Positions 2,868-39,910 of a DNA stretch of 64,000 nucleotides are shown one piece after another (within the stretch, counting starts at the first letter, position 1; each line of letters starts with the position of its first letter). The stretch comes from a virus. The position numbers were made by a program, and so were the translations under genes. The stretch covers positions 39,688 through 103,687 of the IMG/VR virus record IMGVR_UViG_2974600762_000001; one strand, written 5' to 3'. The notes below the pieces were generated by a model. It did not search any database. It worked only from the letters and a program-made list of their open reading frames with translations, and had not been told where the DNA came from.

Positions 2868-4109
2868 ATGACGAAGGCTACTAAAGAAAGTTATACTGAT
2901 GAATTAGGGTCTTTGTTTGGGGATTTAGCTAAGGATGATGACTCCTTAGCTACTTTTTCAGATAACGACCTAGGAGAAACTAAGGATTGGGTACCCACTT
3001 TAATTCCGGCGCTAGATAAAAACTTAGTAGCCGGTATCCCAGCCAGTGGTGAAATTTCTGAAATATTTGGGGGACCTAGCGCCGGAAAATCAACCTTTGC
3101 TGGTTTAATTATGCACAATGCTCAAAAGATGGGTATTGTACCAATTTATTTTGACGTTGAAACTACTCAGCGTGCTTCTAGGCTAATGGAATTGGGTGTA
3201 GACCCTAGGTTTGTTTTGACTGTTAAGCCTAAGCGGTTAAAGAATAAAAAGATGATGCCTTTGTATATTGAAGATATTGGTGAAAAGATGATTGATATGG
3301 CCGCTAAAATCCATGACCGTGACAAGAATCTAATTACTATGTTCATTTGGGATTCCGTAGCTATGACTCAGCCAAAAATGGCAGCAGAAGCAGATGCAGA
3401 CCAACAACTAGTGGGTCAACAAGCTAAGGCTTTAACGGTCATTGGCCGTAAAATTCAGGTTAATTTAGCTGCAAACAATGGATTTTTGCTTGCATTTAAT
3501 CAAGCTAGGGACGATTTTAATGCCCCTAATGCAAAGTATGCACAAGTTAAAACGGTTGGTGGAAAGGGCTGGTACCACTTATTATCAACCCAAATCCTAT
3601 TTAAAAAGAGCACTAAGATTAAAGCCAAATCTTCTGACAAGGAAGCAATTGGTCAGGAAACTCGTGTATCAGTGCCAAAATCAAAGATTGGGGATAATGC
3701 TACTGATGAGGTAACTGTTGACCTAATTGGGGCGACTGGATTTGATGCTGAACGTAATTTGATTACCTCAGCAAATGACTTGGGATTAGTAGAAGGTTCA
3801 AATTGGATGACCTATGTTACTGATAATGGTGAAAAGATTAAGTTGCAAGGAAAGATTGCATGGACTGAATACTTAAAGACAGATGAAGCCAGTGAGGTTA
3901 GAACAGAATTGTGGCAGAAAGTATTACTAACCTACTTTCCAAAGTGCTACCCGCCATTATTCAACTTGCACGCTCGGTTAACTGTTGACAAATTCCCAGA
4001 GATTAAAGGGTTACGCAAATATTATTCTGACATTCAAGAAAAGCTCCCGGATAATGAGCAGGATTATAATTATCGTACCTATATGAAAGCAGGGCTGCCA
4101 CTTGACTAG
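2868..4109 (+). CDS. recA: RecA/UvsX recombinase
   Basis: Walker A GGPSAGKST, YFDVE, Walker B FIWDSVA, FNQAR, GGKG motifs. Confidence 0.95.
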   Translation: MTKATKESYTDELGSLFGDLAKDDDSLATFSDNDLGETKDWVPTLIPALDKNLVAGIPASGEISEIFGGPSAGKSTFAGLIMHNAQKMGIVPIYFDVETTQRASRLMELGVDPRFVLTVKPKRLKNKKMMPLYIEDIGEKMIDMAAKIHDRDKNLITMFIWDSVAMTQPKMAAEADADQQLVGQQAKALTVIGRKIQVNLAANNGFLLAFNQARDDFNAPNAKYAQVKTVGGKGWYHLLSTQILFKKSTKIKAKSSDKEAIGQETRVSVPKSKIGDNATDEVTVDLIGATGFDAERNLITSANDLGLVEGSNWMTYVTDNGEKIKLQGKIAWTEYLKTDEASEVRTELWQKVLLTYFPKCYPPLFNLHARLTVDKFPEIKGLRKYYSDIQEKLPDNEQDYNYRTYMKAGLPLD

Positions 4110-4437: not shown

Positions 4438-5175
4438 ATCACTAAGAATATCACCGGTTATAACTCTGACAGTAAAAATGTATTCAATTCTGTGGGTAAT
4501 TATTATGCCCCCAAAGGTGCTTCCAACATAAAGTTTCTTAGAAGTCCTGAAAAATTACTAAAGCAGTATGATAACTTAATAAGGAGCTTAGGTAGAAAGT
4601 ATGGACGGTTCCTATCATCGGAGGCCGACCGTCAAGAGCTATATTCATTCATTCAAGATGCCTTTATCTCGTTAGTAAAAGAATACGATATCAGTAGCGA
4701 AGTAGACTTTCCGGGCTATATTGTTAAGATGCTGGAGTTCAGAGTTAGTCAATCTTATGCAAAACCTGAGCAAGAGCGTAGAGACCATATCAGCCCCCTA
4801 AAGAAAGAGACTACCACTATTGAGGGTATTATTGATAGTAAACAAATATCTGGAGATACAACTTCTATAGGGTTCAAAGGCAATGATGTTAAGAACAAAG
4901 ATGGTGATATCACCCCAAAAGCTATCAGGTCTGTTGTCCATGTTCCTAGAGACAACGAGATTGATAGTACTCTGATGGAATTAATTGATGATTTAAGCAC
5001 CAGAGCACGCCTAAGCCCGATTAAGGTTGCTTTAGTAAAAGAATTTTATGAAAATGACCCCGGTGTAATAAGGGCTAAGGAGAATGTAGCCAAGCAATTA
5101 AACGTTCCTATCAGTGATGTTAAGAAAGAGTATGCAGAGCTAAAGGAATATTTAGAAATAACATACTATGATTAA
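4438..5175 (+). CDS. phage RNA polymerase sigma factor (start probably ATC 4438; ORF track gives GTG 4492)
   Basis: Region-2-like LLKQYDNLIRSLGRKY...DRQELYSFIQDAFISLVKEYD...FPGYI and C-terminal HTH AKQLNVPISDVKK; AAGGAGG at 4424-4430 lies 7 nt before in-frame ATC. Confidence 0.8.
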   Translation: MTKNITGYNSDSKNVFNSVGNYYAPKGASNIKFLRSPEKLLKQYDNLIRSLGRKYGRFLSSEADRQELYSFIQDAFISLVKEYDISSEVDFPGYIVKMLEFRVSQSYAKPEQERRDHISPLKKETTTIEGIIDSKQISGDTTSIGFKGNDVKNKDGDITPKAIRSVVHVPRDNEIDSTLMELIDDLSTRARLSPIKVALVKEFYENDPGVIRAKENVAKQLNVPISDVKKEYAELKEYLEITYYD

Positions 5176-5255: not shown

Positions 5256-5765
5256 ATGGATTTAAAAGATACGACTATGGCAAACCTAGACGGTAAATTT
5301 ATCGTCAATAACTACCCATCAGCGAGTGCTGATGTATACTTTGATGAGGGTGCAGGTCCAATTGTTTTGGCAGTTAAGTCAAACAAGGTTTATCAGGTAG
5401 GGTTAACTAAGAAAGATTTGCAAGATGTTACCAAGGGTAAGCTGATTGCTACTGTTGATGCCAGTAAGAAGAAAATTTCATGGGTTCAATATCATCATAA
5501 GGACAACCTGTATGATACCTATAATGGTGTTAGGGTAAGCGGATATGATGGTGCTGATGCGGGTGTTCCTTTAATTCAGGCTATTGGCTTATTCTTTAAA
5601 GGAATCAATGTAACTGCTTATGACCCTTATATTCTAAGCTTAGACGAAATTCTAAATGCTGTTTATAATGCTGATGGTTCTAGAGCAACTGCAACTACTG
5701 CAACTACGACTACTAAAAAAGTAGCCCCAACTACAACTACTACAACTACAGTGAGCAAGGGCTAA
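5256..5765 (+). CDS. putative virion accessory protein with poly-Thr C-terminal tail
   Basis: SD AGGAG; beta-rich body; tail RATATTATTTTKKVAPTTTTTTTVSKG; occupies the post-sigma slot that holds Ig-like tail proteins in Twort-like phages. Confidence 0.6.
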   Translation: MDLKDTTMANLDGKFIVNNYPSASADVYFDEGAGPIVLAVKSNKVYQVGLTKKDLQDVTKGKLIATVDASKKKISWVQYHHKDNLYDTYNGVRVSGYDGADAGVPLIQAIGLFFKGINVTAYDPYILSLDEILNAVYNADGSRATATTATTTTKKVAPTTTTTTTVSKG

Positions 5766-5850
5766 ACCTGTAGTGAGCAGTGTAGAAACGACAGAAGAAT
5801 CAGCGACAATTAATGCCACACTAAAATAATTATGAAGGAGAGAATTGTTA

Positions 5851-6162
5851 ATGGCAACTAAATTTGATGTATATAATGGCAACGGTACTTTAGTAGTATC
5901 TGCCCAAGAATCTCCGGTTACAGTAACTGGATTAGCTCCAGATACCACATATACCGGTTGGTATGTAACGGTATCAGGACAAACTGCTAAGACTATTATC
6001 CCTGATTTCACAACTAAGGCATCTGCTACAACAACTACAAGCACTACTTTAAAGGTAACGACAACTACTAGTACGACAACTGTAAAACCAACTACAACGA
6101 CTACTAGTACGACAACGGTAAAACCAACTACAACGACTACTAGTACGACAACGGTAGCGTAA
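5851..6162 (+). CDS. FN3-like tail-tube decoration protein (phi13 major-tail C-terminal type) with mucin-like Thr tail
   Basis: MATKFDVYNGNG..VTVTGLAPDTTYTGWYVT..IPDFTT matches the V.L..L..DTTY....Y.V....VP.F.T pattern; about 45 C-terminal residues mostly T/S. Confidence 0.7.
   Translation: MATKFDVYNGNGTLVVSAQESPVTVTGLAPDTTYTGWYVTVSGQTAKTIIPDFTTKASATTTTSTTLKVTTTTSTTTVKPTTTTTSTTTVKPTTTTTSTTTVA
6085..6156 (+). repeat. perfect 36-nt tandem repeat (2 copies) encoding KPTTTTTSTTTV
   Basis: aaaccaactacaacgactactagtacgacaacggta at 6085-6120 and 6121-6156. Confidence 0.95.
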
Positions 6163-6166
6163 GTAA

Positions 6167-7045
6167 ATGAAGTATCTATCAAGCCAGAACGCAACTGTTA
6201 AGTTTAAATGGCAATTGTCTGTTTATATCACTAGTTTGTTAGAAATTGGGATTAACCCCGATGACATTGTAGTGCTGTTCTCGGACAGTGATAGCCATAT
6301 CCCTAAATATATTAGAGACCATTACCATGTAGATGTACATGTATATGAGGATAATCGAGAAGACAAAAGCTATATTCCTAGTATAAAGCCTTACTTGGTT
6401 TATCGTTATTTAGACGAGAATCCTTCTGCTAGACTAGAGGATTATGTCTATACAGATTCTGATATAATTATCAGGGAACCACTTGATTTTAGTCTGCTAC
6501 CAGCTGACCGTAAAAATTGGTATGGTTCAGATTGTGGTGGATACCTCGATATGGGATATTTAAATTATGTTGATAATTCTGAAAAGATTATTAATGCTAT
6601 GCTAGAAACAGTTGGAATTACAATTGATGATGTTAAGAGTATTGATGCTAATTGTATTGGTGCTCAGTATATCCTGTCAAACCCTAGTCCTGAATACTTT
6701 AAGAAAGTATATCAAGACTCTTACAAACTATACCACGCAACCACAAGGATTGAGTCTAATTTTCAAAATTGGGTAGCAGAGATGTATGCTACTTTATGGA
6801 ATATGCCTCTATTTGGTATTAACCCCTATATTAGTGATGAGTTGGCCTTCACGTGGGGAACTGATAGTGCGGAGACATTCAAAGAGAACAAGATTTATCA
6901 TGATGCTGGCGTAGTTGATGGTAACCAAGGGTTATTCTACAAAGGTAATTATAATATGAGAGAGCCTTTTGATGATGATTTTAGTTTCATCAGCAAAGAT
7001 AAAGCATCTTATTATTATACTAAGTATATTAAAGCAACTAAGTAA
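6167..7045 (+). CDS. GT-A fold glycosyltransferase, possible protein O-glycosyltransferase
   Basis: Y..SIKPY motif, DxD motif in YVYTDSDII, W.AEMY, C-terminal IYHDAG; start codon 4 nt after the Thr-tail gene. Confidence 0.75.
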   Translation: MKYLSSQNATVKFKWQLSVYITSLLEIGINPDDIVVLFSDSDSHIPKYIRDHYHVDVHVYEDNREDKSYIPSIKPYLVYRYLDENPSARLEDYVYTDSDIIIREPLDFSLLPADRKNWYGSDCGGYLDMGYLNYVDNSEKIINAMLETVGITIDDVKSIDANCIGAQYILSNPSPEYFKKVYQDSYKLYHATTRIESNFQNWVAEMYATLWNMPLFGINPYISDELAFTWGTDSAETFKENKIYHDAGVVDGNQGLFYKGNYNMREPFDDDFSFISKDKASYYYTKYIKATK

Positions 7046-7055
7046 TACTCATAAG

Positions 7056-7083
7056 AGGCCGCCTTCAATAGGTGGTCTTTTTG
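7056..7083 (+). terminator. intrinsic terminator after the glycosyltransferase
   Basis: AGGCCGCC-ttcaata-GGTGGTCT followed by T-run. Confidence 0.85.
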
Positions 7084-7128
7084 TTACAAACATGGTATAA
7101 TATAAATAATTAAGAAAGAGGTAATAAT

Positions 7129-7209
7129 ATGGCTTATTATGATAAAGCAACAAGCGATAAATTAAAAGATAAATTTACAGAGGAGACTGACAATGGATAT
7201 TTTAATTAA
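7129..7209 (+). CDS. 26-aa leader ORF (MAYYDKATSDKLKDKFTEETDNGYFN)
   Basis: SD AAGAGG and TG-TATAAT upstream; overlaps SD and start of next gene. Confidence 0.4.
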   Translation: MAYYDKATSDKLKDKFTEETDNGYFN

Positions 7210-18913: not shown

Positions 18914-19303
18914 ATGGAACAACTAGACCTGTTTGCAACTACAACTACAACAACCAGTACAACTACTAGGAAAGTTACCCGTAAGCGTAAACGTAAGGTT
19001 AAGATAACTACCACCACTACCACTACACAGCCCATCAATCAGCTAATTGTTGATGAAGAGTCAAAGCTAAAAGAACTGTTATCTCAGCCCAAACAATTCG
19101 ATGCTCTGAGAGGGGCTATAAGCTGGTTTAAGTCCAAACAGTATACTTGGTACTGTAACACGGTAGAACGTCCTGAGCGAGCTCTGAGGGGTCTTCAAAG
19201 CCATTTGAACGTGTCTGACGATAAATTTTATAAGATGTTGCTTAATGACAAGGTAATGGTAGGGTTAGCAAAAGGAACCTATTTGATTTATTTTAAAAAA
19301 TAG
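18914..19303 (+). CDS. hypothetical protein with N-terminal poly-Thr/basic tract
   Basis: TTTTTTSTTTRKVTRKRKRKVKITTTTTTTQ; SD GGAG. Confidence 0.7.
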   Translation: MEQLDLFATTTTTTSTTTRKVTRKRKRKVKITTTTTTTQPINQLIVDEESKLKELLSQPKQFDALRGAISWFKSKQYTWYCNTVERPERALRGLQSHLNVSDDKFYKMLLNDKVMVGLAKGTYLIYFKK

Positions 19304-22053: not shown

Positions 22054-22881
22054 GTGCCTGATAGCTTCTTAGCCTTTGACGAGGCTAACAGTTACTTAGA
22101 TAAACAGCAACGCTCATTAGACTATTTAGACCGTATTCAAAAATTGTCAGTAATTGCTAAAAATAACATTGACATCAAGGATACACATGGCTATAATAGA
22201 GCAGAATATATTGATAAATTAAACCATCTTGAAAAGCTACCAACAACTAGTATTGCGCTTACTAAGTTAGCTCTTAGAGATAATGTGGCTAAGCCTATAA
22301 GTTTAGCTGAGTTTAAGGACTTAGTCGATGAGATGAACAATGATGATGACAATATGCAGGTAGAAAGTCAAGTTGGAGTACTAATAGTAGAAACACAAGC
22401 CCCAGTAGAAGCTATGCGTAAAACTATTCGGAAATTTTTGGACCAAGGTTATCCCCTGAGTGGCGCTTGGAAGGTTCCAATTGTTTCTAGTGAAGATGCA
22501 AAGTTTATTAATATAAGTAGTGCAAACGAGTCGAATGGGGAAACTAATGACCAAGCCGAAGACCTCTATGAGCAAGTAAAGAAAGCAACTAATGACCCGG
22601 AGTATGAAAGAAAACTTGATGCTAGGATTGAAAAAGCATATGTCAATAAAATGCGTTCTGGTAATATTGATGATGAGGATGACCAAGATTCCGATAATCT
22701 TTTTAGAGCGGAAGACTTTATGGTATACCCTGAGCTCATGGATGACACAAATAAGCAGATAGAGCGTGCAGCACAACACAATATTGATGTTATTAATAGT
22801 GTATTCCATACTAATACTGCCAGATTTATGTCAACTACAATTACTACTACTACAACAACTGTACCTGAGAAAGGAAGATAA
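22054..22881 (+). CDS. acidic hypothetical protein with C-terminal poly-Thr tract (frame open from 21964)
   Basis: Ends MSTTITTTTTTVPEKGR; GTG 22054 has no visible SD. Confidence 0.7.
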   Translation: MPDSFLAFDEANSYLDKQQRSLDYLDRIQKLSVIAKNNIDIKDTHGYNRAEYIDKLNHLEKLPTTSIALTKLALRDNVAKPISLAEFKDLVDEMNNDDDNMQVESQVGVLIVETQAPVEAMRKTIRKFLDQGYPLSGAWKVPIVSSEDAKFINISSANESNGETNDQAEDLYEQVKKATNDPEYERKLDARIEKAYVNKMRSGNIDDEDDQDSDNLFRAEDFMVYPELMDDTNKQIERAAQHNIDVINSVFHTNTARFMSTTITTTTTTVPEKGR

Positions 22882-25114: not shown

Positions 25115-25501
25115 ATGGGATACATTCGTAAAGAAGCAGTTGAAAAGGTTCTTAAGGCACACTCTAACGATAAGGGATTTATGAACTTGTTAGAACTGGT
25201 TAGAAAAGGTAAAAATACTAACACATTGCCTCACCCAAGATTCTCTGTCAGAGACCTAAATAAGGAAATTGTTGACCTAGTAGTAGAATTTGCACAAGAC
25301 GGTAAATCACTTAATGTATACGAAGAAAGTCGAGGGTCACGTAGTTTCATCTATCAATTTCCCATTGAAGACGTTATTTCCAACAAGAAGACAACAGCTA
25401 CAACAACGACTAAAAAAGTGGTATCAACAACTACTACAACCAAGAAAGTAGTACGTAAACGCCGTACGACCACTAAGGCAACCACTAAGTCACCTAAATA
25501 A
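25115..25501 (+). CDS. hypothetical protein with Thr/Lys-rich C-terminal tail
   Basis: KKTTATTTTKKVVSTTTTTKKVVRKRRTTTKATTKSPK; GTTATATTA upstream. Confidence 0.75.
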   Translation: MGYIRKEAVEKVLKAHSNDKGFMNLLELVRKGKNTNTLPHPRFSVRDLNKEIVDLVVEFAQDGKSLNVYEESRGSRSFIYQFPIEDVISNKKTTATTTTKKVVSTTTTTKKVVRKRRTTTKATTKSPK

Positions 25502-39649: not shown

Positions 39650-39910
39650 ATGACTAATCATAACAAGCAACAACAAGCATATGCAACACCAGTTAAGGAC
39701 AAGTTACGGCTATTAACGGGTAAAGTTATCACGCTTAATACTGATGACACTAACTACCCAGTTGAATTTGTTGAACCATTGCTATTTTATATTGCTTATG
39801 GCTTACCTGATAAACTAGACACTAACACATTGACTAGCTATTTCAATCAACACTATACCAAGGGTACACCACTCAATAAAGTAGGATTGCACTTGGTTAA
39901 CCCCCACTAA
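39650..39910 (+). CDS. early hypothetical protein
   Basis: TTGACA promoter at about 39584, SD AGGCGG. Confidence 0.55.
   Translation: MTNHNKQQQAYATPVKDKLRLLTGKVITLNTDDTNYPVEFVEPLLFYIAYGLPDKLDTNTLTSYFNQHYTKGTPLNKVGLHLVNPH

Follow-up and report, generated by a model that had tools for sequence, protein, structure and literature searches.

Three linked genes encode two Thr-tailed proteins and a putative glycosyltransferase

We analyzed a 64,000-nucleotide stretch of viral DNA (IMG/VR record IMGVR_UViG_2974600762_000001, positions 39,688 to 103,687), referred to here as the window, in which a sequence-only reading had singled out three linked genes, g1, g2, and g3, as a candidate system for the O-glycosylation of phage proteins. 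The genome containing the window has a size of 142.6 kb and terminal repeats, and belongs to a lytic Lactobacillus plantarum herellevirus, a myovirus. The region containing the unit is 92 to 95% identical to that of the L. plantarum herelleviruses Iacchus, Dionysus, Bromius, Semele, and Bacchae (genus Harbinvirus). The features of the unit, along with other Thr-rich proteins of the genome, are listed in Table 1.

As proposed in the sequence-only reading, the three genes are closely linked, share one orientation, and are closed by a single terminator hairpin. They are preceded by a recA/UvsX-like gene (2868-4109) and a sigma-factor gene (4492-5175). A simple terminator scanner missed the hairpin, which was revealed by folding of positions 7046 to 7095 (12 bp at 7053-7081 with a U run on its 3' side; -16.7 kcal/mol, z = -3.6). 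The terminator previously placed at 7056-7083 therefore exists, and its coordinates were off by ~3 nt. The first gene, g1, lies 86 nt before g2, which starts with ATG and has an in-frame TTG at 5845. The stop codon of g2 (6160-6162) and the ATG of g3 are separated by the 4-nt spacer reported earlier, around which no strong ribosome-binding site for g3 was seen. This tight linkage suggests that the expression of g2 and g3, the putative substrate and enzyme, is coupled.

Table 1. Features of the three-gene unit and other Thr-tract proteins of the genome (aa, amino acids; positions refer to the window unless indicated otherwise)
Feature	Position	Strand	Family	Description	Evidence
g1	5256..5765	+	phrog_21586	169 aa, C-terminal poly-Thr tail (5685-5762), candidate acceptor
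Open stretch between g1 and g2	5764..5829	+		In the frame of g2, probably a remnant and probably outside the system
g2	5851..6162	+	phrog_14018/341	103 aa, Ig/FN3-like domain and T/S-rich tail, candidate acceptor
Tandem repeat	6064..6156	+		36-nt unit, 2.6 copies, KPTTTTTSTTTV units in the g2 tail
g3	6167..7045	+	phrog_4417	292 aa, soluble glycosyltransferase of GT-A fold as predicted by model
Intrinsic terminator	7053..7088	+		12-bp hairpin and U tract	Folding
129-aa protein	18914..19303	+	phrog_38737	Two N-terminal poly-Thr tracts split by a basic stretch, possible acceptor
275-aa protein	22054..22881	+	phrog_35564	Thr-rich end (22825-22866), possible acceptor
128-aa protein	25115..25501	+	phrog_34928	Basic Thr-rich C-terminal tail with a TTTTKKV unit as in g1, possible acceptor
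Tail sheath	G000:C1:125234-127072 (locus L306)		phrog_279 (E 8e-112)	Outside the window

Both g1 and g2 were found to carry the poly-Thr tails described in the sequence-only reading. In g2, a short Ig/FN3-like domain of ~55 aa (5851-6015) is followed by a T/S-rich tail of ~50 aa (6010-6159). The perfect 36-nt repeat noticed in this tail is present as two identical full copies (6083-6118 and 6119-6154), and Tandem Repeats Finder assigned 98% matches to the entire repeat. Its copy number differs among relatives and is lower in the window than in Iacchus, Semele, and Bacchae. The assignment of g2 as an FN3-like tail protein was supported by its matches to phrog_14018 (1.6e-37) and phrog_341, and by homologs annotated as FN3, Ig-like, or tail proteins. 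The Ig-like domain is homologous to the C-terminal Ig domains of siphophage tail-tube proteins, as well as to stand-alone proteins whose genes lie between those for the capsid protein and the glycosyltransferase (GT). The g1 family, in turn, is narrow.

g3 is predicted to adopt the fold of retaining-type GT-A glycosyltransferases

The GT-A hallmarks that had been noted in g3 are present, namely, Y69 to K74-P75, D97-S-D99, and H245-D-A-G248. Among 39 homologs with identities down to 29%, residues Y69, P75, D97, D99, G165-A-Q167, H245, A247, G248, K259, and G260 are invariant, and H245 is located at a GT8-like distance downstream of the DxD motif. Over its full length, g3 matched phrog_4417, annotated as "unknown function" (E 3.6e-132), and this enzyme family comprises 706 representatives at 50% clustering. 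The identity of g3 is 39 to 49% to homologs in phages of Enterococcus, Lactococcus, Staphylococcus, Lacticaseibacillus, and Clostridium, and 26 to 33% to those in Lactobacillus brevis phages and phage LP65. No membrane segment was seen in the sequence or in the model of g3.

The AlphaFold2 model of g3, generated with the alignment of the 39 homologs, consists of a single alpha/beta domain (predicted local distance difference test [pLDDT], 96.7; predicted template modeling score, 0.93), in which D97-S-D99 sits directly after the strand formed by residues 92 to 96. A comparison with solved structures using VIA-align resulted in Z scores of 15.3 for glycogenin, 14.7 for LgtC, 14.5 for the Skp1 alpha-galactosyltransferase, and 13.9 for GlyE; matches at Z 13.9 to 15.3 cover 209 to 232 residues with an identity of 9 to 12%. 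Together with a GT8 protein, glycogenin, LgtC, and GlyE span Z scores of 13.4 to 15.3, and WbbM and the UGGT catalytic domain were also among the best matches. Foldseek returned a probability of 1.0 for the similarity of the model to GT8 and GT24 enzymes.

Among the reviewed proteins in Swiss-Prot, the top fold matches were GT96 and GT95 proteins (E 7e-11 to 4e-8; template modeling [TM] score, 0.59 to 0.71). They include the peptidyl-Ser alpha-galactosyltransferase SGT1 (E 7e-11; TM score, 0.64) and the hydroxyproline (Hyp) O-arabinosyltransferases HPAT1-3, RDN1/2, PLENTY, and NOD3 (TM score, 0.66 to 0.71), and GT8 enzymes ranked below these proteins with TM scores of about 0.5. Similarly, the first matches outside the enzyme's own family among the AFDB clusters were mostly "HPAT-like domain" proteins of algae and protists. 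The likeness to GT95/GT96 put forward in the sequence-only reading was thus retained at the level of the fold, where SGT1 and HPAT precede GT8, but not as membership in these sequence families, since the identity in structural alignments with GT95/GT96-like proteins is 13 to 18% and no profile match was obtained. Neither g3 nor any of the 39 homologs matched a Pfam family, including the HPAT-like ones, at E ≤ 1, and no match to Pfam Glyco_transf_8 was found for any of them. A profile search of the PDB sequences with g3 returned nothing at E values up to 10.

In a viral fold library, considering the best 50 of at least 500 matches, TM scores of at least 0.6 were restricted to the enzyme's own family (0.91; 0.79 for LP65 Orf49). 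The other viral matches listed were mostly GT-A proteins of giant viruses, cyanophages, and uncultured phages, several of them GT8-like, with TM scores of about 0.5. No mycobacteriophage GT was named among these best 50 of at least 500 matches, and Che8 gp110 and Corndog gp38 were not compared directly. Judging from the model, we have very high confidence that g3 is by fold a retaining-type GT-A glycosyltransferase.

Several long GT homologs (P0127, P0154, P0203, and P0134) are fused to GT2, methyltransferase, or radical-SAM/SPASM domains. The fusions to GT2 and methyltransferase domains fit enzymes that build glycans, and the fusions as a group suggest a more elaborate modification in other lineages. 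These features bear on the possibility that g3 acts on the tails without transferring a simple sugar, handling instead a phospho-sugar or a polyol phosphate, or that it is a non-catalytic factor for tail binding or assembly. The GT-A/nucleotidyltransferase fold is indeed common to other chemistries, which appear among the lower-ranked VIA-align matches. Nevertheless, we judge this possibility quite improbable, given that even deeply divergent homologs all retain the DxD motif, the downstream His, and the GAQ motif, that the top structural matches at Z 14 to 15 are all bona fide retaining hexosyltransferases, and that GT2 domains are among the fusion partners.

The enzyme is accompanied by poly-Thr-tailed proteins across phages

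A scan of IMG/VR revealed at least 595 viral contigs that encode g3 homologs, and the loci of the best 80 were analyzed. Most of them belong to siphophage-type genomes of 20 to 50 kb, in which the GT gene is located inside the head/tail module. We considered as a poly-Thr tail a tract with at least 6 T in 8 that ends a same-strand open reading frame (ORF) of at least 90 aa, and as fully flanked those loci for which 3 kb or more were available on each side. According to the sequence-only reading, its proposal would be refuted by homologous phages that carry the enzyme without any Thr-rich partner. None was seen among the loci analyzed, with a poly-Thr-tailed partner in all 62 fully flanked loci and in 80/80 loci overall. 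The tailed ORF ends no more than 250 nt before the GT start in 73 of the 78 loci with room upstream, and 3 more of these 78 loci contain a looser T/S-rich tail. In siphophages, the GT gene is usually found 1 to 150 nt downstream of the tagged gene.

No single family accounts for the tagged partners. At least seven unrelated ones are represented, which include major head proteins (phrogs 544, 840, 29, and 10), major tail proteins (phrogs 238 and 117, tail tube), the Ig-like phrog_14018, and the head-tail adaptor phrog_40, in which the tract is N-terminal. In the well-studied Enterococcus phage VPE25, the GT gene is flanked on one side by a capsid gene whose product has no tag and on the other by a tail-tube gene whose product ends in ten Thr residues.

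Close relatives gain or lose the enzyme and the tail jointly

As controls, we used the untagged cores of three partner proteins as queries and scored each relative for a flanking GT and a tail. For the major capsid protein (MCP) of the phrog_10 type, a tail was present in 2/2 relatives with the GT and 0/49 without it; the corresponding numbers were 11/11 and 0/40 for the major tail protein (MTP) of the phrog_238 type and 32/32 and 0/36 for the MCP of the phrog_29 type. Pooled, this amounts to 45/45 versus 0/125 (Fisher, 3e-42), in a set of loci that are phylogenetically non-independent. In the phrog_10 set, the proteins of fifteen phages with a core that is 93 to 95% identical stop at "...FLTVSK," and those with the GT add ~20 T/S residues. 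The phrog_238 set contains GT-positive loci with tails on both the MTP and the MCP, and GT-negative relatives of 89 to 90% identity that end in "...DDIKTTPTP." In the phrog_29 set, with 93 to 98% identity, GT-positive proteins end in "...VPGKTTTTTTSHG" and GT-negative ones in "...LIPKP." The interleaving of GT-positive and GT-negative phages at high identity in three unrelated protein families indicates repeated joint gain or loss.

Some GT-negative relatives of the phrog_10 type (L103-L108 and L113) have mixed A/S/T-rich tails, such as "...VAASTASTTSTGN," which are below the poly-Thr threshold. They may represent tags in decay or be modified by another enzyme.

The control families are also informative with respect to the idea that the acceptor of g3 is not a protein but, for instance, wall or lipoteichoic acid, a cell-wall polysaccharide, or phage DNA, and that the Thr tails are unrelated flexible linkers. 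Many phage GTs modify DNA or host surface polymers; in the phage analyzed here, the GT gene adjoins the replication/recombination genes (recA and sigma factor), and in Iacchus-type relatives a glycerophosphodiester phosphodiesterase gene is located just downstream. However, the enzyme and the tail come and go together among the close relatives scored above, the siphophage GT gene resides within the head/tail module, and the closest folds are those of peptidyl O-glycosyltransferases. Furthermore, no gene of the thymidylate-synthase/hydroxymethylase family, which would supply the hydroxymethyl base for DNA glycosylation, was found in the genome. Based on the joint gain and loss with the tag, the position in the head/tail module, and the lack of a hydroxymethylase-type gene, we consider a DNA or cell-wall acceptor very unlikely.

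The herellevirus version of the system

The trio recurs in further herelleviruses of Lactobacillus. In phage LpeD, both partners contain long T/S repeats and the g2 homolog has been automatically annotated as "glycoprotein." In LP65, the homologs of g1, g2, and the GT are orf51 (33% identity to g1, E 9e-18), orf50, and orf49, respectively; orf51 and orf50 both end in TETQTQTQ repeats, and the GenBank note for orf51 reads "structural protein 2-D,MS." In L. brevis phage 521B, the GT homolog of this slot comes after genes for a membrane protein and for a protein of 180 aa that contains TTV(K/A)P repeats. The sequence-only reading had stated that Ig-like accessories occupy this slot in Twort-like phages, and in Kayvirus S25-3 the slot after the sigma factor, which lacks a GT, does contain genes for Ig-domain proteins and for a "major tail protein."

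Genome-wide, strong Thr tracts were detected only in g1, g2, three further proteins of the window (Table 1), two short open frames of 18 and 45 aa, and the tail sheath. The sheath harbors an internal loop with eight consecutive Thr residues ("...VEVG-T8-VTAG..."), a feature conserved in Semele. The loop is part of a lineage-specific insertion missing from the sheaths of EFDG1, List-36, and KKP_4050, and the LpeD sheath contains only "TTTDNS" at this position. The Thr8 loop is probably tagged as well and may be a site at which the tail surface is glycosylated.

The distribution of these tracts relates to an alternative in which the Thr tags are glycosylated without g1 and g2 being exposed on the virion of this phage. 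The two would instead be intracellular, scaffolding, or host-directed glycoproteins, and any virion decoration would then be confined to the sheath Thr8 loop or be absent. The position of the unit outside the structural module would agree with this alternative, as would the narrow g1 family, whose AlphaFold2 model is unusable, and the fact that several of the other Thr-tract proteins are basic and encoded in the early/middle region. On the other hand, LP65 orf51 is annotated as structural (two-dimensional gel, mass spectrometry), and the Ig-like domain of g2 has its homologs in the Ig domains of siphophage tail-tube proteins. We therefore regard a non-virion role of g1 and g2 as unlikely.

Proposed mechanism

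The explanation that we consider probable is that g3, as a retaining-type GT-A enzyme, O-glycosylates Thr runs that serve as portable tags of phage proteins, here g1 and g2, and that a mucin-like particle surface is to be expected. Accordingly worded as a mechanism, g3 would be a soluble, cytoplasmic, Mn-dependent retaining transferase that moves a monosaccharide from a UDP-sugar onto the hydroxyls of consecutive Thr residues in disordered tails, in a manner that can be likened to the action of SGT1 and HPAT on extensin motifs. The Thr tag would be the acceptor of g3, and the linkage would be alpha, given that the relatives of g3 are retaining-type enzymes. In this phage, the tags would be those of g1, whose LP65 homolog is annotated as structural, and of the small Ig/FN3-like g2, both encoded in the same transcription unit as the enzyme. 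Both proteins would be located in the virion, and the outcome would be a mucin-like, sugar-decorated particle surface with a putative role in adhesion, stability, protease resistance, or shielding. The glycan may be extended or modified in those phages in which GT homologs are fused to GT2 or methyltransferase domains.

We also favor, with less assurance, a broader view in which poly-Thr is a portable encoded tag that is served by a single enzyme, small and soluble, with a distant relationship to the plant extensin GTs. The pair would move between phages as a unit and would have been gained and lost many times, so that any phage protein acquiring a Thr run, be it a capsid, tail tube, sheath loop, Ig-like decoration, or adaptor protein, would turn mucin-like. 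This would represent a widespread cytoplasmic mucin-type O-glycosylation that could be used as a two-part glycoengineering tool.

Apart from the non-independence of the loci counted, several observations weigh against the proposal that g3 glycosylates the Thr tags of g1 and g2. First, g3 has no significant match to Pfam, NCBIfam, or PDB sequence profiles, and since the profiles give no match, its assignment as a GT is based on fold and motifs. Second, L272 and L275 lack the GT and the capsid tail and have nonetheless kept a poly-Thr-tailed major tail protein; no GT remnant was found in these two loci, and their orphan tags are probably module mosaics that arose from module exchange. Third, the unit is located behind the recA and sigma-factor genes, outside the head/tail module, and the genome-wide poly-Thr scan revealed no tag on a capsid or tail-tube protein, the genes of which were not located. 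Fourth, the virion location of g1 is derived only from the GenBank note for a homolog with 33% identity, and the AlphaFold2 model of g1, obtained with a shallow alignment, is unusable (pLDDT 38.6). Finally, some of the other Thr tracts, embedded in basic stretches, may simply be linkers.

Comparison with known systems

To our knowledge, experimental proof that phages sugar-coat their own particle proteins is available for mycobacterial phages only. As summarized in two papers (PMC12363180, PMC12894461), Freeman et al. (2023, Cell Host Microbe 31:1216) reported that GTs encoded by the mycobacteriophages Che8, Corndog, and Myrna glycosylate the phages' own capsid and tail-tube proteins, giving rise to a glycan coat. 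The system proposed here shares with them the phage-encoded GT and, as predicted from the genes, the glycosylation of virion proteins. It differs in that the mycobacteriophage hosts are Actinobacteria, in that a single small HPAT/SGT1-like GT-A enzyme would act together with a plain poly-Thr tag, and in that the tags are found on small accessory proteins and a sheath loop instead of the capsid.

Outside its own family, g3 has its nearest predicted folds in SGT1 (GT96) and HPAT/RDN (GT95). These enzymes attach single sugars directly to hydroxyl side chains of repetitive extended motifs in extensins. The plant enzymes are Golgi membrane proteins that recognize Ser-Hyp4, whereas g3 is a bare soluble catalytic domain for which Thr runs are the proposed acceptor. 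With GT8-type enzymes, g3 has in common the DxD motif and, judging from its spacing, probably the downstream His of the metal site, an arrangement typical of Mn-dependent retaining transferases, although the identity is 9 to 12% and Pfam Glyco_transf_8 was not matched. Three members of this group (glycogenin, the Skp1 enzyme, and GlyE) have proteins or protein-linked glycans as their substrates, as is proposed for g3. GlyE, from the pneumococcal serine-rich-repeat adhesin pathway, differs in that it extends an existing O-GlcNAc and does not prime peptides. Firmicutes also possess host-type GtfA/GtfB systems that add O-GlcNAc to Ser/Thr-rich proteins and have a GT-B fold, in contrast to the single GT-A domain of the g3 model, which does not correspond to such a GT-B primary transferase.

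Among viral proteins, A64R of chlorovirus PBCV-1 is a virus-encoded GT-A enzyme that acts on the virus's own major capsid protein (VIA-align Z score of 11.1 to g3). However, PBCV-1 is a eukaryotic giant virus with atypical N-linked glycans, a poly-Thr tag is absent, and the fold is more distant. The siphophage phrog_4417 loci contain the same enzyme family, usually with a poly-Thr-tailed protein encoded immediately upstream on the same strand, but their tags are mostly on the capsid or tail tube and their GT gene is inside the head/tail module.

In the literature, we found no description of poly-Thr tags, virion glycosylation, or this enzyme family in Firmicute phages. What is new in this herellevirus is the myovirus layout after recA and the sigma factor, the stand-alone tagged carriers, and the Thr8 loop in the sheath. 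The herellevirus case implies that the tag can sit on separate small carriers and on an internal sheath loop, beyond the C termini of capsid and tail-tube proteins. Should the proposal be correct, self-made sugar-coated particles would be a trait of many phages infecting lactic acid bacteria, enterococci, staphylococci, listeriae, and clostridia. This would be relevant to adsorption, to stability in food fermentations and the gut, and to mucus binding, as well as to antibody recognition in phage therapy, several of the carriers being Enterococcus and Staphylococcus phages. In addition, the 292-aa enzyme and a short poly-Thr tag would form a minimal pair for sugar-tagging chosen proteins in bacteria, and phage enzymes would be linked to the GTs of plant cell-wall proteins.

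Additional features of the unit and the genome

An open stretch of 21 codons, KPVVSSVETTEESATINATLK, precedes g2 (Table 1) and resembles beta strands of an Ig/FN3 domain. It is separated from g2 by TAA and TGA, followed by the g2 ribosome-binding site. The stretch is conserved in Iacchus, Semele, and Bacchae (L001/L002, about 3664-3811) and absent in LpeD, where the gap between g1 and g2 is 20 nt. Iacchus and Semele additionally contain a 60-nt insertion directly after the g1 stop codon. We considered whether the stretch might provide the first strands of a split FN3 domain that is joined to g1 or g2 by recoding. This was not supported, because distant g2 homologs start at the same Met with the same short Ig-like domain, LpeD lacks the stretch, and the substitution rate of the stretch equals the background. 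Probably, the stretch is what remains of a domain that has been lost.

Two of the other Thr-tract proteins, those encoded at 18914-19303 and 25115-25501, show Thr runs that alternate with strongly basic stretches (RKRKRK and KKVVRKRR), and they may bind nucleic acid.

The site just 3' of the GT gene varies between relatives. The window contains there only ~150 nt of intergenic DNA (7046-7192), Iacchus, Dionysus, and Bromius a gene for a 568-aa glycerophosphodiester phosphodiesterase (L001, 5165-6871), Semele a gene for a 512-aa hypothetical protein (L002, 5126-6664), and Bacchae an ORF of 64 aa (L003, 5067-5261). In LP65, orf42 (L319, 8049-8828), ~3 kb downstream of the GT homolog, is annotated as similar to an exopolysaccharide sugar transferase of Streptococcus thermophilus and is a possible second sugar enzyme.

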